64,000 bases of DNA, taken from the NCBI GenBank assembly GCA_964016885.1, contig OZ024745.1, positions 30,876,001 through 30,940,000 of the forward strand, written 5' to 3'. A model generated the notes under the pieces. It was given only the letters and a program-made list of their open reading frames with translations, had not been told where the DNA came from and ran no database searches. A program made the translations under genes and the position numbers. This DNA is from Eledone cirrhosa. Taxonomy: Eukaryota. Positions 11,616 through 64,000 of this stretch are shown here, piece after piece. Every line of letters starts with the position of its first letter. Position 1 is the stretch's first letter.

Positions 11616-11884
11616 ATTATGTGTGTGTATGTATATATCCTGAAGTAAGTACTCAACATCCCGAAGCATCTCAGATTACATCTGGTGGTCCAGGGGAAGT
11701 ATATGCAGTGAAGAATATGTATGTAAAATGGGTTTTTACAATTTATTCGGAAATTTTCCATTACAAATGTTTCAACGGGTTTGACGACTATTCAGCCTGT
11801 TGGTTCCATAGTGTCAATCCAGCTTCTTCAAATGGTCTTCCGAACAATGAATGTTATCAGTTCTCTCATCTCTCCACCACTGCG

Positions 11885-12000
11885 CCATTTTCGCCGTTAA
11901 TCTGTCAAGTTGTCGGCAATAGACGTCAGAGGTTATGCTGGTGTTTGGTGGGAATTGCTCGTAGTGGATGACATCTTTCCACTTTCACCAGATGCACAGT
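11885..12000 (-). pseudogene. Mariner transposase fragment
   Basis: Translates as LCIW*KWKDVIHYEQFPPNTSITSDVYCRQLDRL, matching the mariner WW..G.I.YE.L..N.TI.S..YC.QL.RL segment; contains a stop. Confidence 0.8.
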
Positions 12001-12029
12001 TCTTCTTTTTGTGTTGTTGAATTTCCACT

Positions 12030-12140
12030 TACCTTCCTCGACAGTCCAGGGACTGGTGAGAGAGCCGGTTTAGTCGCCGACCACCCGACCATGAATCAGG
12101 TTGTACTGGGCTAAATGTTACCAGTAGTCGCCTCAGACAT
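12030..12140 (-). mobile_element. Third variant of the RTE-type 5' head
   Basis: Minus strand: CTACTGGTAACATTTAGCCCAGTACAACCTGATTCATGGTCGGGTGGTCGGCGACTAAACCGGC, homologous to the family A/B heads. Confidence 0.75.
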
Positions 12141-12155
12141 GTATATGTATATGCC

Positions 12156-12497: not shown

Positions 12498-12830
12498 TAC
12501 ATCGTTTGCATGAACCGTTTTCGAATAGAGTAATAATATTTATGAAAGCCACAACAAAGCATGTATGGAAATAAGAAGTGTAAACAGAAGCAAAGTTACA
12601 AGTGAAGAGAATGGTTCATATGTTGACCTTTTATTACAATATTTCGGATTTAAAAGCCGACTACTATTAAGAAAGCGGAAGACGAGCTCGCTTCATCTAC
12701 AAATATCAAAATCGCAAAACCCGAAGACAGTAAGCTGTCAACGTAAAAGCCGCACTCCGACTGGTATTATATTCTATCGATCCCAGAAATATGTATATAT
12801 GTATGTATGTATGTATGTATGTCAGGTCAT

Positions 12831-13440
12831 GTCAGGTCACCAGTTGGTGCTACTGGTAACATGTATCCCAGTACAACCTGTCTCATGGTCGGGTCGTTGG
12901 CGACTAAACTGGCAACCCCACCAAGGTTTCTTGGTGAGGAGGGTGACTTTGGACATCCTGCAAGACTAAAAACAAAACCTGTCAAAGGGCAAAGGAGCTC
13001 TTAAGAGTCAATGGCCATCCAAAATCACCGGGAGAGATGACCCCTTAGCCTTTGTCAAGGCAGAATTCTAGGAGAAGGAAAACTCTGATATAACACCTGC
13101 AACCCTGATGGTATCCAATGATGTTGACTTGTTCTTCGTTTTGGTAAATATCATCTTGGTTAAGAGAGTGGGACTGGCTTTGTGCAGTGCCTTTGCTCAC
13201 TATAAAAGCTTCACGGCACAGGCATTGCTTTATATCTGGAGATCTCTCTGCACTTGTCGTCACATGGTACCATGGGCCCAGCACTATGTGTCAATAATTG
13301 TCACAGGTGTAGTGTTTGTACCAGAGTTTTCAAGTCGCTGACTGGACGAAAAAGTCACACTCGTTCAGCGCATCGGTAGGGGTTCTCCTACATGGATATA
13401 AAGTAGTGGCCGTACTCGAAAACGAGTTGGCAGCCACCAT
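12831..13440 (+). mobile_element. Family A copy 3, full length (about 610 bp), bipartite RTE-derived
   Basis: 5' part is homologous to the RTE 5'UTR at 34905-35322; 3' part encodes C..C.RVFKSL..LKSH..SAH like the RTE C-terminal zinc finger; (GTAT)n on both sides. Confidence 0.88.
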
Positions 13441-13477
13441 GTATGTATGTTTCTTTGTATGTATGTATGTATTATAT

Positions 13478-14254
13478 GTCGGGTCACTCTTGAGTGCTAC
13501 TGGTAATATGTAACCCAGTACAACCTGTCGCATGGCCGGATCGTTGGCGACTAAACCGGCAACCCCACTAACTTTACTTGGTGAGGAGGGTGATTTTGGA
13601 CATCCTGCAGGACAAAAAACAAAACCTTACAAAGGGCGAAAGAACTCATAAGAGTCAACGGCTATCCAAAAATGTGTAAATATGTATATACACATGTACA
13701 TATGTATGTATATATGTATATGCATGTGTGCGTATATATGTGTATATATGTATATGCATGTATATGTATGTATATGCCCGGAAACATAGAAATAGTTGGG
13801 CTGGATACCCAATCGCGTGGTTAAACCACTGGGAATGAAGGACCCCTAGCCTTTGTCAGGGCATTCTTCTAGGAAAAGGCAACTCGGGAAACTAGGATAA
13901 CTCCGATATAAAACCTGCGGCTCAGTAGTTACCGATGATGTTGATCTTTTCTTCTTTTCGGGTTATAGCTACTGTCACTCAGAGAGTGGGATTGGCTCAG
14001 TGTACAGTCTTTCCTCACTTTAAAAAAATCTTCACGCACAGGCATTACATGATAGACTTAATTAATTGTTTCTACTTTAGGCACAAGGCCAGCAATTACC
14101 CAGTACATTACTGGTACTTTATTTTATCGACCCCGTAAGGATGAAAGGCAAAGTTAACCTCGGCGGGATTTGAACTCTGTAGAATTAATTAATAATTATT
14201 AATAATGGTATATCGTGCAACGGCTATACTCGATAACGAGGGGGCAGCCATCAT
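13478..14254 (+). mobile_element. Family B bipartite RTE-derived element interrupted by a SINE
   Basis: About 13590-14022 closely matches 34905-35322 (minus strand); 3' tail ...CTCGATAACGAGGGGGCAGCCATCAT + (GTAT)n; a second tail copy at 19051-19126 (minus). Confidence 0.8.
14067..14178 (-). mobile_element. 5'-truncated tRNA-SINE nested in family B
   Basis: TSD AGACTTAATTAAT (14054-14066) / AGAATTAATTAAT (14181-14193). Confidence 0.8.
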
Positions 14255-18307: not shown

Positions 18308-18912
18308 ATGGTGGCTGCCAACTCGTTTTCGAGTACGGCCACTACTTTATATCCATGTAGGAGAACTCCTACCGATGCGCTGAACGAGTGTGACTTTTTA
18401 GTCCAGACAGCGACTTGAAAACTCTGGTACAAACACTACACTTGTGACAATTATTGACACATAGTGCTGGGCCCATGATACCATGTGATGACAAGTGCAG
18501 AGAGATCTCCAGATATAAAAAATGCCTGTGCCGTGAAGCTTTTATAGTGAGCAAAGGCACTGCACAAAGCCAGTCCCACTCTCTTAAACAAGATGATATT
18601 TACTAAAAAGAAGAACAAGTCAACATCATTGGATACCATCAGAGTTGCAGGTGTTATATCAGAGTTTTCCTTCTCCTAGAATTCTGCCTTGACAAAGGCT
18701 AAGGGGTCATCTCTCCCGGTGATTTTGGATGGCCATTGACTCTTAAGAGCTCCTTTGCCCTTTGACAGGTTTTGTTTTTAGTCCTGCAGGATGTCCAAAG
18801 TCACCCTCCTCACCAAGAAACCTTGGTGGGGTTGCCAGTTTAGTCGCCAACGACCCGACCATGAGACAGGTTGTACTGGGATACATGTTACCAGTAGCAC
18901 CAACTGGTGACC
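18308..18912 (-). mobile_element. Family A copy 4
   Basis: Reverse complement of 12831-13440; (CATA)n flanks. Confidence 0.88.
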
Positions 18913-18913
18913 A

Positions 18914-18947
<34 letters not shown>

Positions 18948-21547: not shown

Positions 21548-24500
21548 CCTTGAGTCTCGGTCATTGATGTTATTTAACTGGAAAGTTTGTTGAAATGAAT
21601 ATCAAGCCGCTACCTGCAGCCTCAGATATTCAGGACGTATCGGAGGGTTCTTGCTGTTCCCAGCAAGCATGCCTTTTGAAGTGTTCCAAAAAGCGGGGCT
21701 GGACTAATCTTCTTTAACCATCCTTGGAAACTCTTTGAGATAGTACCTAGTGCGCCTATGACTTCATGGCAGTTCCAAATCCTTTGAGTCCTGGTATCGG
21801 TTAATTTTCTCCCTCTCCTTTTCTTGCACTCTCGTGTCAAATAGGGAGGCTACATCTACAATCAGGCACGATCTTTTTTCCTTGTCCAAAACTACCAGGT
21901 CAGGCCTATTGTGTTCTAATTTCTTGTCCGTCTGTATCCTAAAATCCCATAGCACCTTCACCTGATCGTTTTCTATCACCGACTCTGGCTTATGCTCATA
22001 CCACTTCTCAGAATGTGGTAAATTGTTTACTTTGCATAGGTACCAGTGGATCACCCTGCCTATCACATCATGTCTCTAGCCTTTATAGTGAGTCTGGGCT
22101 AGGTGTTTACACTCGGATACAATATGAGCTACAGTCTCCTCTCTCTCTCTCCACAGATCCTACACAGTGGGCTAGCCTCCTCCTTGTAAATATGGTGTTT
22201 CACCCACTTCGTTCTGAGGGCCTGCTCTTGCGCAGCCATTAGCATTCCTTCTGTAACCTTTTTAAGGTCTCCTCTTTTTAACCAGTTCCATGTCTGTGGA
22301 TCTCTAAATTCAGTTTTCTTAAAGAAGGTACTATGAAGGGATTTTTCATGAAGGTTGCTCTTCCTCTTTGTTGTTATTTCCTCCTTGGACATCCCCTGGT
22401 CTATTGTCTTCTCCTTCAGTACAATTTTGAGCATTGGCTCCCTACTGTCAGTCACGTATTTGTGCAGGTTGTTTTTCTCCATCTGAACACAGTCCTCTAT
22501 GCTAAGTCCTCTTCCACCTTCAGTGGAACATGTTGTAGATAGTCAATAGCTTCATAGTCTTCCTATCCATTTCTTTTTGTTCAGCAACATTCCATTTCAG
22601 AATTCCCGCACTGTACCTAATAATAGACACAGCTCGGGAATTCACTGAACTTATGACATTCCTACTATTTAGATGTGATTTTAATACGCTCCTTACTCTC
22701 CTAATGTACTCATATCTTATCAATTCCTTCATTTTTTTTGTTCTTGATGTCATCTGCCTCCAGAACACCTAAATATTTGTATCCTCCTTCAGAGTCAATT
22801 TCCTTTATCATCTCACCCGTTGGTACCTCGATTCCGTCGCTTCTGCTCAATTTACCCCTCTTCATCACTAGGACTCCACACTTATTAATACCAAATTCCA
22901 TACATATATCATTGCTGAAAATACGGACAGTGTTAACAAGTGCATCCAACTCCTTCTCACTCTTCCCAAAGAGTTTAAGATCGTCCATGAAAAGAAGGTG
23001 GTTGATGGTAAGCTCTCCTTTTCCCAACTTGTATCCTGCTCTCACTTTTCGCAATATAATGGTCAGGGGTATCAGGGCAAGGACAAACAGCAGAGGGGAC
23101 AAACTATCTCCCTTGAAGATACTTCTCTTGATCTTCACGCCTCCCAAGGATTCTCCACCCGATGTTAATTCTGTTTCCCAGGACTTCATACTTTTGCTCA
23201 ACAACTGTTTGATGTTATCTGCCACCTTGAAGATCTCTAGGCTTTTAGTTATCCAAGAATGAGGTACCATGTCGAATGCCTTTTTGTAATCTATCCATCC
23301 CATGGCAAGACCAGTGTGTCTCCTCATGAAATTCCTCATTACCATCTTATCAATAAGTAACTGGTCTTTTGTACCACGGGACTTCTTTCGGCATCCTTCC
23401 TGTTCGTCCGGTAACAAGTTGTTTATGTGGAGGTGATGGTAGATTTCCTCAGACACAATGCTTGTTAACAGTTTCCACATTACGGACAGACATGTGATAG
23501 GTCTATAGTTGGTAACATCATTACCCTTGGTTCGGTCTTTCATTACCAGAACTGTGGTACCTTTTGTCAACCACTCTGGTACTTCACCTGACATCAAGCA
23601 GTCATTGAACATGGTTGTCAGTTTCGGGTGGAGGGATTTTATATTTTTAACCCAATACCCCTGCACACCATCTGGGCCTGGTGATTTCCAGTTGGTTAGT
23701 TTACTGGCCTGCCCCTTAAGAGTTTCAACTGTGATACTCAAATCAGTTTGTTGGTGTACCTGTTCACTAATCTCCTTTTGTACTGTCTCAATCCACACTG
23801 CCTGATCATTATGTTCAACATCCTGCTCCCATATTCCTCTCCAGAATGTCTTAGTTTGTTCCGCCTCAGGGATCAAGTCGTTGCCTCTTTCTTTCCCTTC
23901 AAGCTGTCCAAACAACATCTTCTGGTTGTTGTCAAACATGCGGTTCTGTCTATACTGACTGACTCTGCTCTCGTATCGCCTAATCTTTGCGCTCTTTGCT
24001 ACAATGCGTTGCTTCAGTTCCTCTATGATAATATTTAGCTTTTTCCTCCTAGTTTTGTACTTTATTTCCAGTCTATTTTTAGTGTCTATGTTTTGTAGTG
24101 TCCCACTCAGTAGGGACTCAAGCTTTCCAATGTCATTTCTCATTTCCCTGATTTGACCATTCAGTTGTTTCTTCCACCAAGGTTCTGATCTTTCTTGTTT
24201 GTTGTTTCCTCTCGCTTTTATGCGAAGTAATTTCCTCACCACATTTGAAGTTGCTTTGAGGATATTGTTGCACTGGTGAAGGTTCCTCGCCTCAAGGTAT
24301 GGGATGACTTTGTTTACCTTAGCTGTTGTTTCTTTTAACTTTTTTCCTGTCTACAAATCTTAGGTTCATAGGGTTTCGACTATCATTGTTCATTTCATCT
24401 ACCACTAAGTTTAGGATATCAACCAAATCTTGTCCTAGCCCGTCAGCATTCATTTCCTCAATGGCCGTATCTTTGTTCCAGGTATTATTTATTTCAGCAT

Positions 24501-33449: not shown

Positions 33450-35322
33450 ATGATGGCTGCAAACTCTGCTAAGAGTATTGCAATCGCTTGTCAGATTCAG
33501 ATGTGTGACGCTCGGATATGGCTTTTCAAGCCTGCTAGAGACTTGCACTCCTTCACACACTGACGACAACTCTCCCTGGCTTGAGGTCCGGCATCAGGTT
33601 GCCCGTGAACCCTCACAACACCGTGGAGATCATAGTTCACTGGTTCTCTTTGAACATGGCTGCAACTGTGGCTCCTGAGACCAGATTTACTCAAGCAAAT
33701 TTTTCCACACTCAGGGCACTTCAATTCAATGGAGACACCGATCGTTTCGAGAGATACACCAGGGCATTGCTTGCGCACATCCCGTTTGATCTTCTCGTGC
33801 TCTATGCGTCTGTCCTCAAAATTATGGACCCCATCATTCACCATTCCACGCCAAGATTCTCTTTTAAGAGCTTCTATCTCCCAGTCAGCCATCATCAAAC
33901 CAGTTTTGTCAATGAATCCTTTACACAATCCTTGAATCGGAGCCTTGGCTTGTGAGGTGGTCTTTTACCCTCACAAAGCTTGCCATACAAGACTTGTTTT
34001 GGGATTCGATCATCCTCCATTCTGCAGAGGTGTCCGGTCCATCGCAAACGCCGTTGGTGGATGATAATCTCAATGCTCCGACACTCACATCTCTCAAGGA
34101 CTTCAACATCACTCACATGCATCTGCCACTTGATACCGAGTATCTTTCTGAGACACTGCTGGTGAAACCGTTCCAGTCTGTGGATATGCCGTTTGTAGGC
34201 AACCCATGTCTCACATGCATACAGCAAAGCTGACAATATACAAGCAGCATACACTCTCACCTTGGTCCTCATTGTGATTCCTCGCCTGCACCAAAGACGG
34301 TCGTTGAGCCTTCCAAATGACTCACTTGCCTTACTAACACGTAGACCAACTTCTGCATCCAGAGAACAGGCCACACTCAGAGTACTCCCCAAATACACAA
34401 ATGTGTCAGCAGCCTTCAGCTTTTGACCGTATACGTATATGGAGGGTTCATTGAAAACTTTATCCGGAGCAGGTTGGTACATACGACAGTCTTCTTCAGA
34501 CTGATTGTCAGTCCCAAAGCACTGCACGCATTGGAAAAAGAATCCATAAGGTGTTGCATGTCACTCTGGGAGTGTGCAAAGAGATCACAATCATCTCCAT
34601 ATAAAAATTCTCTGATCAAGTTACTCAGTACCTTAGTGTTGCCAGTGAGACACCTACGGTTAAACAGCTTGCTGGAAGTGCGATATCTGAGATAGATACC
34701 GTGTTGACAATACCTGAAAGCCATGAAGAACACCATTGCGAAATACAATGCAAACAAAGTTGGTGCAGGTATATCACCCTGCTTGACACCATTTTCAACC
34801 GAGATTGGCTCAGACAGTTTACCTCCAGCATTTACCCATGCCTGCATGTCATCGTGGAAGAGTTTCAGAATGTTCACAAACTTTTCAGGTGAGATCGACA
34901 AAAACTTAAAATGAGGAAAGACTGTGCACTGAGCCAATCCCACTCTCTGAGCGACAGTAGCTATAACCCGAAAAGAAGAAAAGATCAACATCATCGGTAA
35001 CTACTGAGCTGCAGGTTTTATATCAAAGTTATCCCAGTTTCCTGAGTTGCCTTCTTCTAGAAGAATGCCCTGACAAAGACTAGGGTCCTTCACTCCCTGT
35101 GGTTTAACCGCGCGATCGGGTGTCCAGCTAGACTATTTCTATGTCCCCGCGCATATACATGCACATGCACCCATGTATATACACATATACATATACATAC
35201 ATATGTACATGTGTACATGTGTACATACATATTTACACACTTTGGGATGGCCGTTGACTCTTATGAGTTCTTCCGCCCTTTGTCAGGTTTTGTTTTTTGT
35301 CCTGCAGGGTGTCCCAAATCAC
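33450..35322 (-). mobile_element. Internally deleted RTE LINE (5'UTR fused to mid-RT)
   Basis: GVKQGDIPAPTLF, FLYGDDC, FVYLGS, LLYACETW, FHQQCLRKIL and two C2H2 fingers across three frameshifted ORFs; no endonuclease or N-terminal RT; (GTAT)n tail. Confidence 0.9.
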
Positions 35323-51879: not shown

Positions 51880-51924
51880 AGTCATAGTCCTTTCGTCACA
51901 CACTCTGTGACCTCTTCAGTGACT
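51880..51924 (-). ncRNA. Hammerhead in the inverted left arm
   Basis: Reverse complement of 53729-53773. Confidence 0.8.
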
Positions 51925-51931
51925 GGGGAGA

Positions 51932-53524
51932 ATGATCAGCGAGAGCAAGGTTGAGTTCCGTGGGATTGATACCAGTGAGCTGGGACTTCTACTTAAGCTT
52001 ACCCATAGTAATAGTTACCTAGACACATATGACCTTAGCAACCTGTGCCCTACAAGACCAGCAAGAGGCAGACCACCTACCATTACCTCAATGGCCAAGA
52101 AAACCCACACAGATAGATGGAACGGGTGGACCAGAGCCATACGGACACCCGAAAACCACGATGAACTGAAGAAAATGATTGCACATGCGGTAGGGGCCAG
52201 CATAAAATTAACCCTTAAGGAACATATGTTCAAATTTAATGGAAAAACATATGCCCAAGAGGAAGGAGCAGCTATTGGTGTTAGCATTGCAGGCGACATA
52301 GCTAACTTATTCATGGTATGGTGGGACAGTAGACTTAAATTTAAACTTAAAGAACAATTAGAAGACAGCTTAACCCTGATAATGTACTCCCGCTACGTAG
52401 ATGATATAAACATCGTAGTTAAGATACCCCCACTAGAGAACAGTCAGGAACTAGAGAAAAACACAATGGAAAGCATCCAGCAAATAGCAAACTCCATCCA
52501 CCAGAGCATTAGAGTTACTATAGACTACCCAAGTAGACACCCCAACCATCGATTACCTGTACTAGACACAGAGCTCTGGTTAGATACCATTAACAACCAA
52601 AAACAAATCCTCCATTCCCATTATGCCAAACCCATGACTTCCAAACATCTGATCCACCGAAACTCGGCCATTTCGGACCATACCAAAATCAACATACTGA
52701 TTGCGGATTTGGTACGGGTGATGAGAAATGTGTCCCGCATGTGCAACCCCGAAGAACTAGAGAGACACATACAACACTTCATCCACCGTATGCAGTTCTC
52801 TGGCTACAATCAGAGAGATAGAATCAGAGTGTATAGAGGAGCCAGAACCAAATGGGAAAAAATGGTAAATAATGACATAAATGGGACCTGCCCCTTGTAT
52901 AGGAGCAACTTTTGGAATAGAATAGAAAGAACTAGGAACAAGGCCAATAGAATAAACTCATGGTATGATAGCAATAAATACCAGAGTGTAATGTTCATCG
53001 ATACAACCCCTAGAGGCGAACTAGCCTACAAATTTAGAAGGGCCCTAAATAAACATAAACTCAATATTAAGATAGTAGAAAGACCAGGTACCTCCGTAAA
53101 AACACTTATTAGCAAGACATACCCGTTCCAAAGACCCTCATGTATAGATAAGAAATGTATAACCTGTAAAATAAGCCCCCATATTAACTGTAAAACTAGA
53201 AATGTAGTGTATAGCATAAGATGTACTGAAGGACAATGTAGAAACAAAAATATAGTGTACATAGGTGAGACAGCTCGTAGTATAGGGGAACGGATAAATA
53301 AACACTGGCGAGACCTTCAAGATAATAAAGAATCATCTGTACTCTACCAACATGCTAAGATAGAACACAAGGGTAAATTAGAGAACATAGAAATAAAAAT
53401 AGAATCTACACACAGAAAAGATGCAATGTTTAGACAAATTACAGAGGCAATAAACATAAAAGAATTACAACCAAAATTAAATAAAAAATATGAGTGGAAC
53501 AGCAACATCACAACTTACAATTAA
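51932..53524 (+). CDS. PLE protein, C-terminal RT half plus GIY-YIG endonuclease (530 aa open)
   Basis: YAQEEGAAIG, RYVDDI, LPVLD, thumb domain, C-x4-C-x2-C linker, NVVYSIRC...YIGETARSIGERINKH...H...EAINI...P.LN; upstream RT motifs missing. Confidence 0.92.
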   Translation: MISESKVEFRGIDTSELGLLLKLTHSNSYLDTYDLSNLCPTRPARGRPPTITSMAKKTHTDRWNGWTRAIRTPENHDELKKMIAHAVGASIKLTLKEHMFKFNGKTYAQEEGAAIGVSIAGDIANLFMVWWDSRLKFKLKEQLEDSLTLIMYSRYVDDINIVVKIPPLENSQELEKNTMESIQQIANSIHQSIRVTIDYPSRHPNHRLPVLDTELWLDTINNQKQILHSHYAKPMTSKHLIHRNSAISDHTKINILIADLVRVMRNVSRMCNPEELERHIQHFIHRMQFSGYNQRDRIRVYRGARTKWEKMVNNDINGTCPLYRSNFWNRIERTRNKANRINSWYDSNKYQSVMFIDTTPRGELAYKFRRALNKHKLNIKIVERPGTSVKTLISKTYPFQRPSCIDKKCITCKISPHINCKTRNVVYSIRCTEGQCRNKNIVYIGETARSIGERINKHWRDLQDNKESSVLYQHAKIEHKGKLENIEIKIESTHRKDAMFRQITEAINIKELQPKLNKKYEWNSNITTYN

Positions 53525-55556: not shown

Positions 55557-56166
55557 ATGGTGGCTGCCAACTCGTTTTCGAGTACGGCCACTACTTTATA
55601 TCCATGTAGGAGAACCCCTACCGATGCGCTGAACGAGTGTGACTTTTTAGTCCAGCCAGCGACTTGAAAACTCTGGTACAAACACTACACCTGTGACAAT
55701 TATTGATACTTAGTGCTGGACCGATGGTACCATGTGACGACAAGTGCAGAGAGATCTCCAGATATAAAGCAATGCCTGTGCCGTGAAGCTTTTATAGTGA
55801 GCAAAGGCACTGCACAAAGCCAGTCCCACTCTCTTAACTAAGATGATATTTACCAAAAAGAAGAACAAGTCAACATCATTGGATACCATCAGGGTTGCAG
55901 GTGTTATATCAGAGTTTTCCTTCTCCTAGAATTCTGCCTTGACAAAGGCTAAGGGGTCATCTCTCCCAGTGATTTTGGATGCCCATTGACTCTTAAGAGC
56001 TCCTTTGCCCTTTGACAGGTTTTGTTTTTAGTCCTGCAGGATGTCCAAAGTCACCCTCCTCACCAAGAAACCTTGGTGGGTTTGCCAGTTTAGTTGCCAA
56101 CGACCCGACTATGAGACAGGTTGTACTGGGATACATGTTACCAGTAGCACCAACTGGTGATCTGAC
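55557..56166 (-). mobile_element. Family A copy 6
   Basis: Full-length reverse complement; (CATA)n flanks. Confidence 0.88.
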
Positions 56167-56245
56167 ATACATACATACATACATACATACATACATACAT
56201 ACATACATACATACATACATACATACATACATACATACATACATA

Positions 56246-62584: not shown

Positions 62585-64000
62585 TTAGGGAGGTGAGTTG
62601 AGTCCACGGGGGGAATAGGACACAAGGCGATGAATCAGACTCTGTTCAATCGTAGTGCGCGACGCCTGTGATCCATCATGTAAAGGGACACCCAAGACTG
62701 AAACATGTAAGGAAGAGTGACCAGGAGAACAGAAATGACGGGCGACAGGAGTATCCAAACCGAGTCGAATGTCCCTCAAATGCTTAGCAAAACGGTTATC
62801 TATACGGTGTCCTGTTTGTCCGATGTATAAAGACCCGCAAAGGGAACACCGGAGGGCATAGACAACGTGGGAAAGAAAGAAAGAAAGAAAGCAGTCGAGC
62901 TGTTCTCGAGATAGAGAGGTGCGGCCGATACAGTCGTCGATATAACAACCGTATAACTCAGGAGTCGACCCAGCGTACTGAGAGAAGATCTGGGTTTCGA
63001 CGTAACCAACAAACAAGTTGGCATAATTTGGACCCATTCTGGTTCCCATCGCTACACCCAGAGACCTGCTGATAGCATTCACCCGAAAAGGAAAAGCTAT
63101 TGAGGGTGAGTACAAGCTCAGCCAGACGGAGAAGAGTGGTAGTGCTGGGTTATGGGGTAGGGCGTAAGTCTAAAAAATGTTGGAGAGCGTGGAGGCCGTC
63201 ATCGTCAGGGATGACAGTATAGAGAGAGGGTAAAGAGAAGGCGAGAGGGACCAGGAGGAAAGGAGAAGGAGATGAAGAGTATAAGGGCATGATTGGTATC
63301 GTGGATGTGGGAGGGGAGATTGACGACCAGTGTCTAAATATTCAGAAATTATCTCGGTGTGGCAGTTGGGAGGAAGTAGATGTTGGGTGTGCGAGGGGTG
63401 CGTACAATAAGGTTGGTGGCTGTGGGGGTAGGAGAGAGGGGGAGATGAGCTCGTGGATGGTGGAGGACACGAGTTGTTGGTCGCTAGGAGTGGGGTCGGA
63501 GGATAAAGGGCGGTAAAAGAGGGTATTGTGAAGCTGGCGGAGAGCCTCAGCCCTATAGAGGTCAACGCTCCAAACCACCACAACGCCACCTTTGTTGCGA
63601 AGGTTGCGAAGAGCTCAGTCCGCGTGATGTTAGAGCGACGAGAATGCTGGTGGAAACAGTACCGGTTCACAGTAAGCCGACAAATATCGACAAAGGAGTC
63701 GAGAGTGCTGAACTGGCCAGAGCTTGGTGTCCAATGTGATTGCCGGTGACTGAGACGAGTGAAGTCATCCGTCTGTGTCGATGATGGCGTGTCGTGAAAA
63801 AAAGCTTTCAGCTTTAATCGACGGAAGAACCCTTCAATCTCGACACGTGTGCGGAACTCGTCGCAGGTAGATGTGGTTGGTATAAGACGCAAACCACGGG
63901 CGAGGAGGGAGGGCTTAGCTTCAGAGAGTGGTAGGTCCTGGGGTATGGTGACTACAGGGCAGGGACGTGAGGGAATGAAAGAGACGGAAGTGGAGAGGTT
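62585..64000 (-). pseudogene. Degenerate Neptune-like PLE ORF (deletions, frameshifts; runs off the window)
   Basis: FFRRLKLKAFF N-terminal motif; GVAMGTRMGPNYANLFVG, YIDDCIG; VVYALRC..C..LYIGQT...RF..H...PVARHF...P.GLN. Confidence 0.9.

Follow-up and report, generated by a model that had tools for sequence, protein, structure and literature searches.

The window analyzed here, a 64,000-nt stretch of the Eledone cirrhosa genome, carries a 612-nt non-autonomous derivative of an RTE element, a bipartite unit that joins an RTE 5' part to an RTE 3' end without an ORF and has a TATG microsatellite as its tail. We call this element family A and its first 120 nt the head, with an xrRNA-like domain (12831-12887) as its 5' terminus. 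Near-identical copies are found on many contigs genome-wide. Over its 5' 400 nt, family A shares 71-72% identity with the beginning of full-length RTE LINEs (L117, L119, and L122), and the ORF of LINEs of this type has Pfam endonuclease and RT domains; in a related autonomous family, the element begins with the head in 6 of 12 fetched loci. The head has the setting of an RTE-clade LINE 5' UTR, being terminal, upstream of a single APE-RT ORF, and on elements with a microsatellite tail, where the clade is named from motifs and the single-ORF layout.

Five heads, not three, lie within the window (Table 1). An earlier note on this DNA had described three variants (12831+, 13478+, and 12140-) that keep their pairing, and we found all three in place with the named paired segments. 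Pairing is indeed kept at 12831 and 13478, but the copy at 12140 (minus strand) is from an older family and has lost the 5' strands of P1 and P2, so that our descriptor (below) does not parse it. This third variant runs, at 11700-12030 (minus), into sequence resembling a mariner transposase fragment; Pfam was blank for the one ORF submitted from this interval. Genome-wide, six head families (A, B, B0, C, D1, and D2) could be resolved from 119 copies. Random genome stretches of 400 kb held five full heads and one partial head, and extrapolation from these 400 kb gives roughly 40,000 copies in the 3.0-Gb genome.

Side features of the window at 22710-24350 (-), 51923-53524 (+), 62585-63169 (-), and 33450-35322 (-) comprise one RT ORF, two GIY-YIG ORFs (Penelope-like), and one family B RTE, the last headless and internally deleted. 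A young full-length RTE family with ORFs of up to 991 aa (L111, L112, and L113; G000 C4 and C2) is also without the head, starting straight after a T-run with its ATG about 10 nt in, and provides a natural contrast family. ARAGORN was blank for the head, and we set aside a tRNA-derived SINE head; a bacterial promoter and terminator scan of the sequence, which is not relevant to this DNA, was likewise blank.

The composition of family A is that of the bipartite RTE derivatives Bov-A, RTESINE, and WALLSI3, which consist of RTE 5' and 3' ends without an ORF (Kojima 2018, PMC5786205). That account, in its available part, describes no structure of the head's kind, and the core motifs of the head were not found in its supplement; the D and F1 families have a downstream motif resembling the RTE/Ceph conserved domain that it quotes.

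Table 1. Heads in the window and parts of the family A head with its structured leader
Feature	Position in window	Strand	Remark
Family A head, 612-nt element	12829..13440	+	intact first variant
Family B head (second variant)	13475..13564	+	complete xrRNA-type domain
Old family D head (third variant)	12060..12146	-	5'-truncated, P1 and P2 lost
Further family A head	18830..18919	-	head matches in window
Further family A head	56080..56169	-	head matches in window
G3 and U4 equivalents	12831..12832	+	5' strand predicted to thread ring
P1 helix CAGGT/ACCTG, closing the three-way junction	12833-12837 with 12876-12880	+	80/80 cells paired
P2 variable hairpin, 4-6 bp at junction, 12-28 nt across families	12838..12849	+	compensatory changes, pairs 2 to 5
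Single junction C between P2 and P3	12850..12850	+	C in 15/16 rows of alignment A2
P3 TACYGG/CCRGTA and loop L3	12851-12856 with 12868-12873	+	97.9% of cells paired
PK2 5' strand CATG, inside L3	12860-12863	+	pairs with CATG after P1
C-N dinucleotide joining P3 to P1 (equivalents of C44 and position 45)	12874..12875	+	C in 18/18 parses
PK2 3' strand CATG, 2-3 nt past P1	12884..12887	+	64/64 cells paired, invariant
Second domain	12888..12913	+	hairpin 12896-12900/12909-12913 around CGACTAAA
P5 variable hairpin	12916..12939	+	different sequence and length, hairpin in nearly every family
Rest of structured leader	12940..13023	+	hairpin 12941-12958, loop 12948-12953 can pair with 13018-13023

Fold and covariation of the head

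The 5' domain of the head likely folds into a three-way junction, running through P1, P2, a single C, P3, and a C-N dinucleotide, with the loop pseudoknot PK2 added. Numbering residues as in PMC7603331 (G3, U4, A24, U42, and C44), we predict a PK1 pair between G3 (12831) and the C at 12874 and a U-A-U triple of U4 with the A12852-U12872 pair. All of 50 young-family copies have G3, whereas F7 lacks it and only 2 of 5 copies of D2 show it; across 16 representatives, PK1 is G-C in 13, G-U in 2 (copy-level decay), and unpaired in 1. The bases of the predicted triple are similarly constant in alignment A2 (U4 in 15/16, A in 16/16, and U in 15/16), and the sole exception to the single junction C is one decayed B0 copy, the B0 family consensus having C. 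The C of the C-N junction occurs in 18 of 18 parsed representatives, as the descriptor requires, and is followed by A, T, or C. PK2 could extend to 4-6 bp depending on the family (18/18 parses); its CATG core is invariant and palindromic, showing no covariation, and could instead pair between molecules.

The stems listed in the earlier note are part of this topology, but it did not list the two features by which the fold can be recognized, a closing helix (CAGGT/ACCTG) and a loop pseudoknot (CATG/CATG). Its hairpins CACCA/TGGTG and CACTC/GAGTG do pair, but as 4-bp stems with tetraloops, since a fifth pair would close a 2-nt loop. For the GYCGG stem of the second domain, the outer register that it gave pairs and is the better one for family A, but the inner register GTCGG/CCGRC around CGACTAAA is better supported overall and covaries in families F2 and F3. 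The final hairpin that it described as changing in sequence corresponds to P5, a hairpin of differing sequence in nearly every family.

The description of the leader as a conserved, covarying structure on RTE elements was borne out: across the 16 representatives of alignment A2, pairing is kept in 98.1% of 467 cells and two-sided changes occur at 6 of 30 pairs, compared with 2.6 +/- 1.3 such pairs in shuffled alignments, 4 of 500 of which reach the observed six, in a control that ignores relatedness. These two-sided changes are confined to P2, P3, and the second-domain hairpin, with no two-sided change in P1 (one one-sided change), PK2, or the second pseudoknot helix. In P3, pair 4 goes from U-A to C-G in 2 of 16 representatives; in P2, A2 leaves two pairs gapped in four families, and reading by hand from the junction showed pairs 2-5 to be compensated throughout. 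Nearest-neighbor folding, a method that omits pseudoknots, the triple, and Mg2+, returned the three-way junction as the MFE structure in 6 of 8 isolated heads. Of 15 heads folded in isolation, only 6 had pair probabilities above 0.5 for P1, P2, and P3 together, and in 230-nt context P1 passed this value in 1 of 15, and the energy z-scores of the heads are unremarkable (-1.9 to +0.4).

Likeness to flavivirus xrRNAs and occurrence elsewhere

RF01415 (Flavivirus_SLIV) gave a weak match at both intact window copies, leading us to compare the head with xrRNAs of subclass 1a. These have a 5-bp P1, a P3 of 4-8 bp, and a variable P2 (PMC7527734), are distinguished by a conserved single C between P2 and P3 (PMC8374639), and contain a U4-A24-U42 triple, the G3-C44 pair (PK1), and a PK2 of 2-7 bp (PMC7527734, PMC8374639, PMC7603331, PMC8571300, and PMC13161572). 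All bases required for the subclass 1a ring are found in the head, which shares with SL-II/SL-IV the 5-bp P1, the variable P2, a 6-bp P3, the junction C, and the bases of the triple and of G3-C44, as well as much junction sequence that aligns with canonical pairs; a PK2 between a loop and downstream sequence (4-6 bp possible in the head) is a putative further likeness. Head and viral class also have the same pattern of constraint, with P1 and the junctions fixed and P2 free. The subclass 1a ring places 15-16 nt around the 5' strand, and in all 18 parses of the head the distance separating PK2 and the P1 end is 16-17 nt, a related but non-identical measure. In contrast to the flavivirus structures, the head has a longer L3, U-A as both the first P3 pair and the last P1 pair, and a different second domain, and it occupies the 5' terminus of a cellular retrotransposon, 5' of the endonuclease and RT of LINEs, rather than the viral 3' UTR in which RF01415 is located. 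Taken together, the 5' domain of the head is probably a subclass 1a-type xrRNA in a cellular retrotransposon.

To this comparison we applied a descriptor, written after the sequences were seen, in which the ring bases are fixed and the P1 sequence is free. It parsed 18 of 19 family representatives (F7, lacking G3, failed) and none of 1900 dinucleotide shuffles; its only matches in random genome strands totaling 800 kb were 3 sites, all of family A. RF01415 was the top match for 9 of 15 genome heads, with no match for the other 6, and for 0 of 5 downstream controls; for metagenome families F4 and F3 it was the sole match. Its alignments hold P1, P2, P3, and both junctions in register, with scores of 19.1-28.7 bits (E-values 0.03-2.8) that stay below the gathering threshold of 54.5, and we therefore do not file the head as a member of RF01415. 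The Rfam check that the earlier note had called for gave nothing at gathering score across the 64 kb. A scan of 12 whole loci (25 kb, E up to 10) found neither ribozymes nor RF01415, the latter because the larger search space hides 20-bit matches.

How the likeness arose can be argued in two directions. De novo xrRNAs work without a conserved P1 sequence, according to the available subclass 1a literature, which favors shared ancestry of head and flavivirus structures; P1 and junction bases of xrRNA also bind Mg2+ (PMC7603331), which allows for convergence. We put forward tentatively, as possible rather than probable, a reading in which the xrRNA of RTE LINEs in several lineages of animals is genuinely of subclass 1a and has a common origin with the flavivirus structure, through exchange between RNA viruses and retrotransposons, and in which host Xrn1/Xrn2 mature the 5' end.

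Scanning metagenome contigs with a pattern in which the P1 and PK2 3' strands were set and their partner strands left free, we obtained 49 matches, and the free strands in the metagenome members are still complementary. A covariance model of the head, itself built partly from these matches, fitted 35 of the 49 at E below 0.01, and we discarded the other 14 as chance by the same model. The metagenome heads make up about nine further families, and RTE-type protein sequence lies downstream in 10 of 29 loci examined. Among 11 families, the head core is 82% identical and the next 110 nt 64%, with identity dropping 200-400 nt downstream to 51%, equal to random (50%); the endonuclease fragments of five families below heads are only 27-66% identical. 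At L177/L214 and L178, an almost unchanged head is found on endonucleases with only about 28-33% identity to the others, hinting at exchange of the 5' module between LINE lineages. Extra GTCAG units precede the head in five metagenome loci (L172, L173, L181, L188, and L196), where slippage on the short repeat formed by the P1 and P2 5' arms is the likely origin. In sequencing run X5, record 3 is a high-depth 1061-nt contig with the core and a P2 that is long and different but still follows CAGGT, from a head family absent from the Eledone cirrhosa genome. Viral contigs gave 0 matches with the first pattern; a looser one gave 12 in viral contigs and 1 in prokaryotic genomes, all at no more than 14.4 bits with model R1 and taken as chance.

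Element start, competing readings, and possible function

Xrn1 stops 5-6 nt ahead of P1 in flaviviruses carried by mosquitoes (PMC5760640), which puts the expected halt in the head 3-4 nt before G3. We looked for the element boundary in several sets of copies. Four upstream bases are common to 65-82% of 17 copies of family F1, the fifth falling to 47%, and three upstream bases to 64-71% of 14 copies of family D1. Among 12 incidental copies flanked by periodic (microsatellite) sequence, 33-50% show a break in the period at offsets 1-4, compared with 0-17% at offsets 5-15; 16 copies of families B and C showed no enrichment of phase breaks. At L059:1080-1630 (minus), three tandem 205-nt leaders lie inside a 10-bp target-site duplication, and the internal units begin 3-4 nt before G3. 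Searches for target-site duplications were otherwise mostly uninformative because the flanks are microsatellites, although 6 of 36 unique-flank copies have a duplication-like match, five of them (credible or near-credible) ending 0-1 nt before G3. These observations place the element boundary 0-4 nt before G3, around the expected Xrn1 halt site, a position compatible with an exonuclease halt there but no proof of it. RTE enzymes have a target preference (PMC6007223), and this may contribute to the boundary signal.

The analysis establishes that the head lies terminally on RTE elements, that it is conserved far more strongly than the rest of the 5' UTR, that P2, P3, and downstream helices covary, and that the ring nucleotides are present. 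On these grounds we consider it probable that the first 57 nt fold into a subclass 1a ring that blocks the 5'-3' exoribonucleases Xrn1 and Xrn2, protecting or fixing the 5' end of the RTE RNA; resistance of the head to Xrn1 is a prediction of this model from sequence. Many LINEs have internal promoters at their first bases, L1Tc being an example, and the leader might instead combine an internal Pol II promoter with a structured RNA that serves translation or is bound by the RT, its viral likeness being convergent or incidental and exonucleases passing unblocked. Consistent with such a promoter, the most invariant parts of the head are without covariation and could be DNA or protein-binding motifs, the structured region extends over 200 nt, well past the ring domain, and target-site duplications end 0-1 nt from G3. 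We nonetheless judge this arrangement unlikely, as it leaves unexplained the compensatory changes in P2 and P3 along with the fixed single C, the C-N junction, the triple nucleotides, and the PK2 spacing; a promoter and an xrRNA can, moreover, coexist. Far less plausible is that the stems are a by-product of recent common transposon ancestry, none of the RNA structure being under selection. Neutral decay of individual genome copies, unremarkable energy z-scores, and a shuffle control that takes no account of relatedness would all fit; yet P2 and P5 are replaced wholesale between families and still pair, identity is random 200 nt downstream while the core remains at 82%, and across two alignments there are two-sided changes at 14 pairs, making this a very improbable account.

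The earlier note had leaned toward a new self-cleaving motif, and the head could in principle be a new or very diverged HDV-like ribozyme cutting at or just before G3, so that the element would be released from the transcripts of its host. A sharp 5' boundary speaks for this, and a CTAAA segment resembles an HDV J4/2 strand. Among candidates tried and rejected, a relaxed HDV-like descriptor parsed 3 of 15 families (sense strand) at unrelated places, against 28 of 120 shuffles; the core patterns of hammerhead, pistol, and twister-sister were found in 0 of 15, and these three, together with hatchet, had no Rfam match; manual and scripted fits to the cores of HDV-like, twister, pistol, hatchet, twister-sister, and hammerhead ribozymes failed; and twister, including T-variants, has only GAGGG in common with the head, a loose loop pattern occurring in 2 of 15. 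An HDV-like ribozyme would call for a nested double pseudoknot (P1-P2-P3-P1.1-P4) and a catalytic C in J4/2, kept across homologues. The twister layout calls for L1 with (n)AA, P2, and P4 with an L4 loop of the UCCCAAGC type, followed by GAGGG, in cyclic order (PMC8501958). The further conclusion of the note, that no known ribozyme class fits, stands, as core descriptors were at chance level or blank and Rfam scans with E up to 10 returned no ribozyme family. Some RTE elements have an HDV-like or twister ribozyme at this same 5' position (PMC5786205, PMC6765202, and PMC8501958), which speaks for a ribozyme; the conserved bases of the head are already accounted for by the xrRNA architecture, and its 5' domain maps feature by feature onto the subclass 1a xrRNA, a known non-catalytic fold that serves to block 5'-3' exonucleases, so that we regard a ribozyme as improbable and its self-cleavage as the part of the earlier proposal that was not supported. 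The HDV-like ribozymes of R2, RTE, and L1Tc and the twister variants of Perere-3 occupy the same position at the element 5' end and likely serve the same purpose, a defined and protected 5' end made from a longer transcript. They do so by self-cleavage, whereas no catalytic core fits the head and its end would come from a halted host exonuclease.

Under the xrRNA model that we favor, the 5' strand would thread a ring closed by PK2. Uncapped element RNA, whether inside a host read-through transcript or decapped, would be trimmed by a 5'-3' exonuclease that would halt 3-4 nt upstream of G3, and the outcome would be a stable full-length template with a fixed start, to be copied by reverse transcription into the next insertion. 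Such a fixed start is the job done by HDV-like and twister ribozymes in other RTE and R2 elements, and the R2 5' ribozyme, which is thought to confer exonuclease resistance (PMC12222951), offers a functional precedent. An internal promoter may coexist with the ring.

Characterized xrRNAs are confined to viruses in the available part of a 2021 review (PMC8374639), which raises the question of their existence in eukaryotic genomes and names endogenous viral fragments as the sole candidates there. We found no report of an xrRNA in a LINE or other retrotransposon in the full-text literature searched (subscription journals, Repbase, Dfam, and bioRxiv supplements lying outside it), and the available parts of PMC12397905, PMC13282606, and PMC10085705 do not mention one in a LINE; the fold class is known, and its retrotransposon setting is new as far as this search extends. 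The head is a high-copy, conserved candidate for a cellular xrRNA of the best-studied class, with tens of thousands of copies in one genome. If the model is right, it would be the first functional cellular xrRNA of subclass 1a and would join internal promoters and ribozymes as a third means of defining the transcript of a LINE, with a new explanation of how RTE elements, which are poor in promoters, come to have a stable and defined 5' end. It would also raise the question of exchange between flaviviruses and retrotransposons, suggest a native stabilizing module for retrotransposon-based gene insertion tools, and mean that RNA decay and transcription termination in the host could be influenced by tens of thousands of Xrn-blocking folds lying in its introns and UTRs.

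The remaining 140 nt of the structured leader would, in the same model, serve translation or RNP assembly. Of the 5 pairs in the second-domain hairpin, 2 show two-sided and 3 one-sided changes, and 12888-12891 could pair with 12901-12904 as a possible H-type pseudoknot, a helix that is invariant. Farther downstream, in the rest of the leader, 8 of 18 pairs change on both sides among 13 representatives, and the covariation score is 0.377, compared with 0.188 +/- 0.022 in shuffles. The long-range pairing listed there in Table 1 would enclose two further helices. This pairing of a loop with a strand about 70 nt away (window 12941-13023) covaries strongly, at 4 of 6 pairs, and is a third candidate for a pseudoknot, one that might act in translation or as an RNP element.
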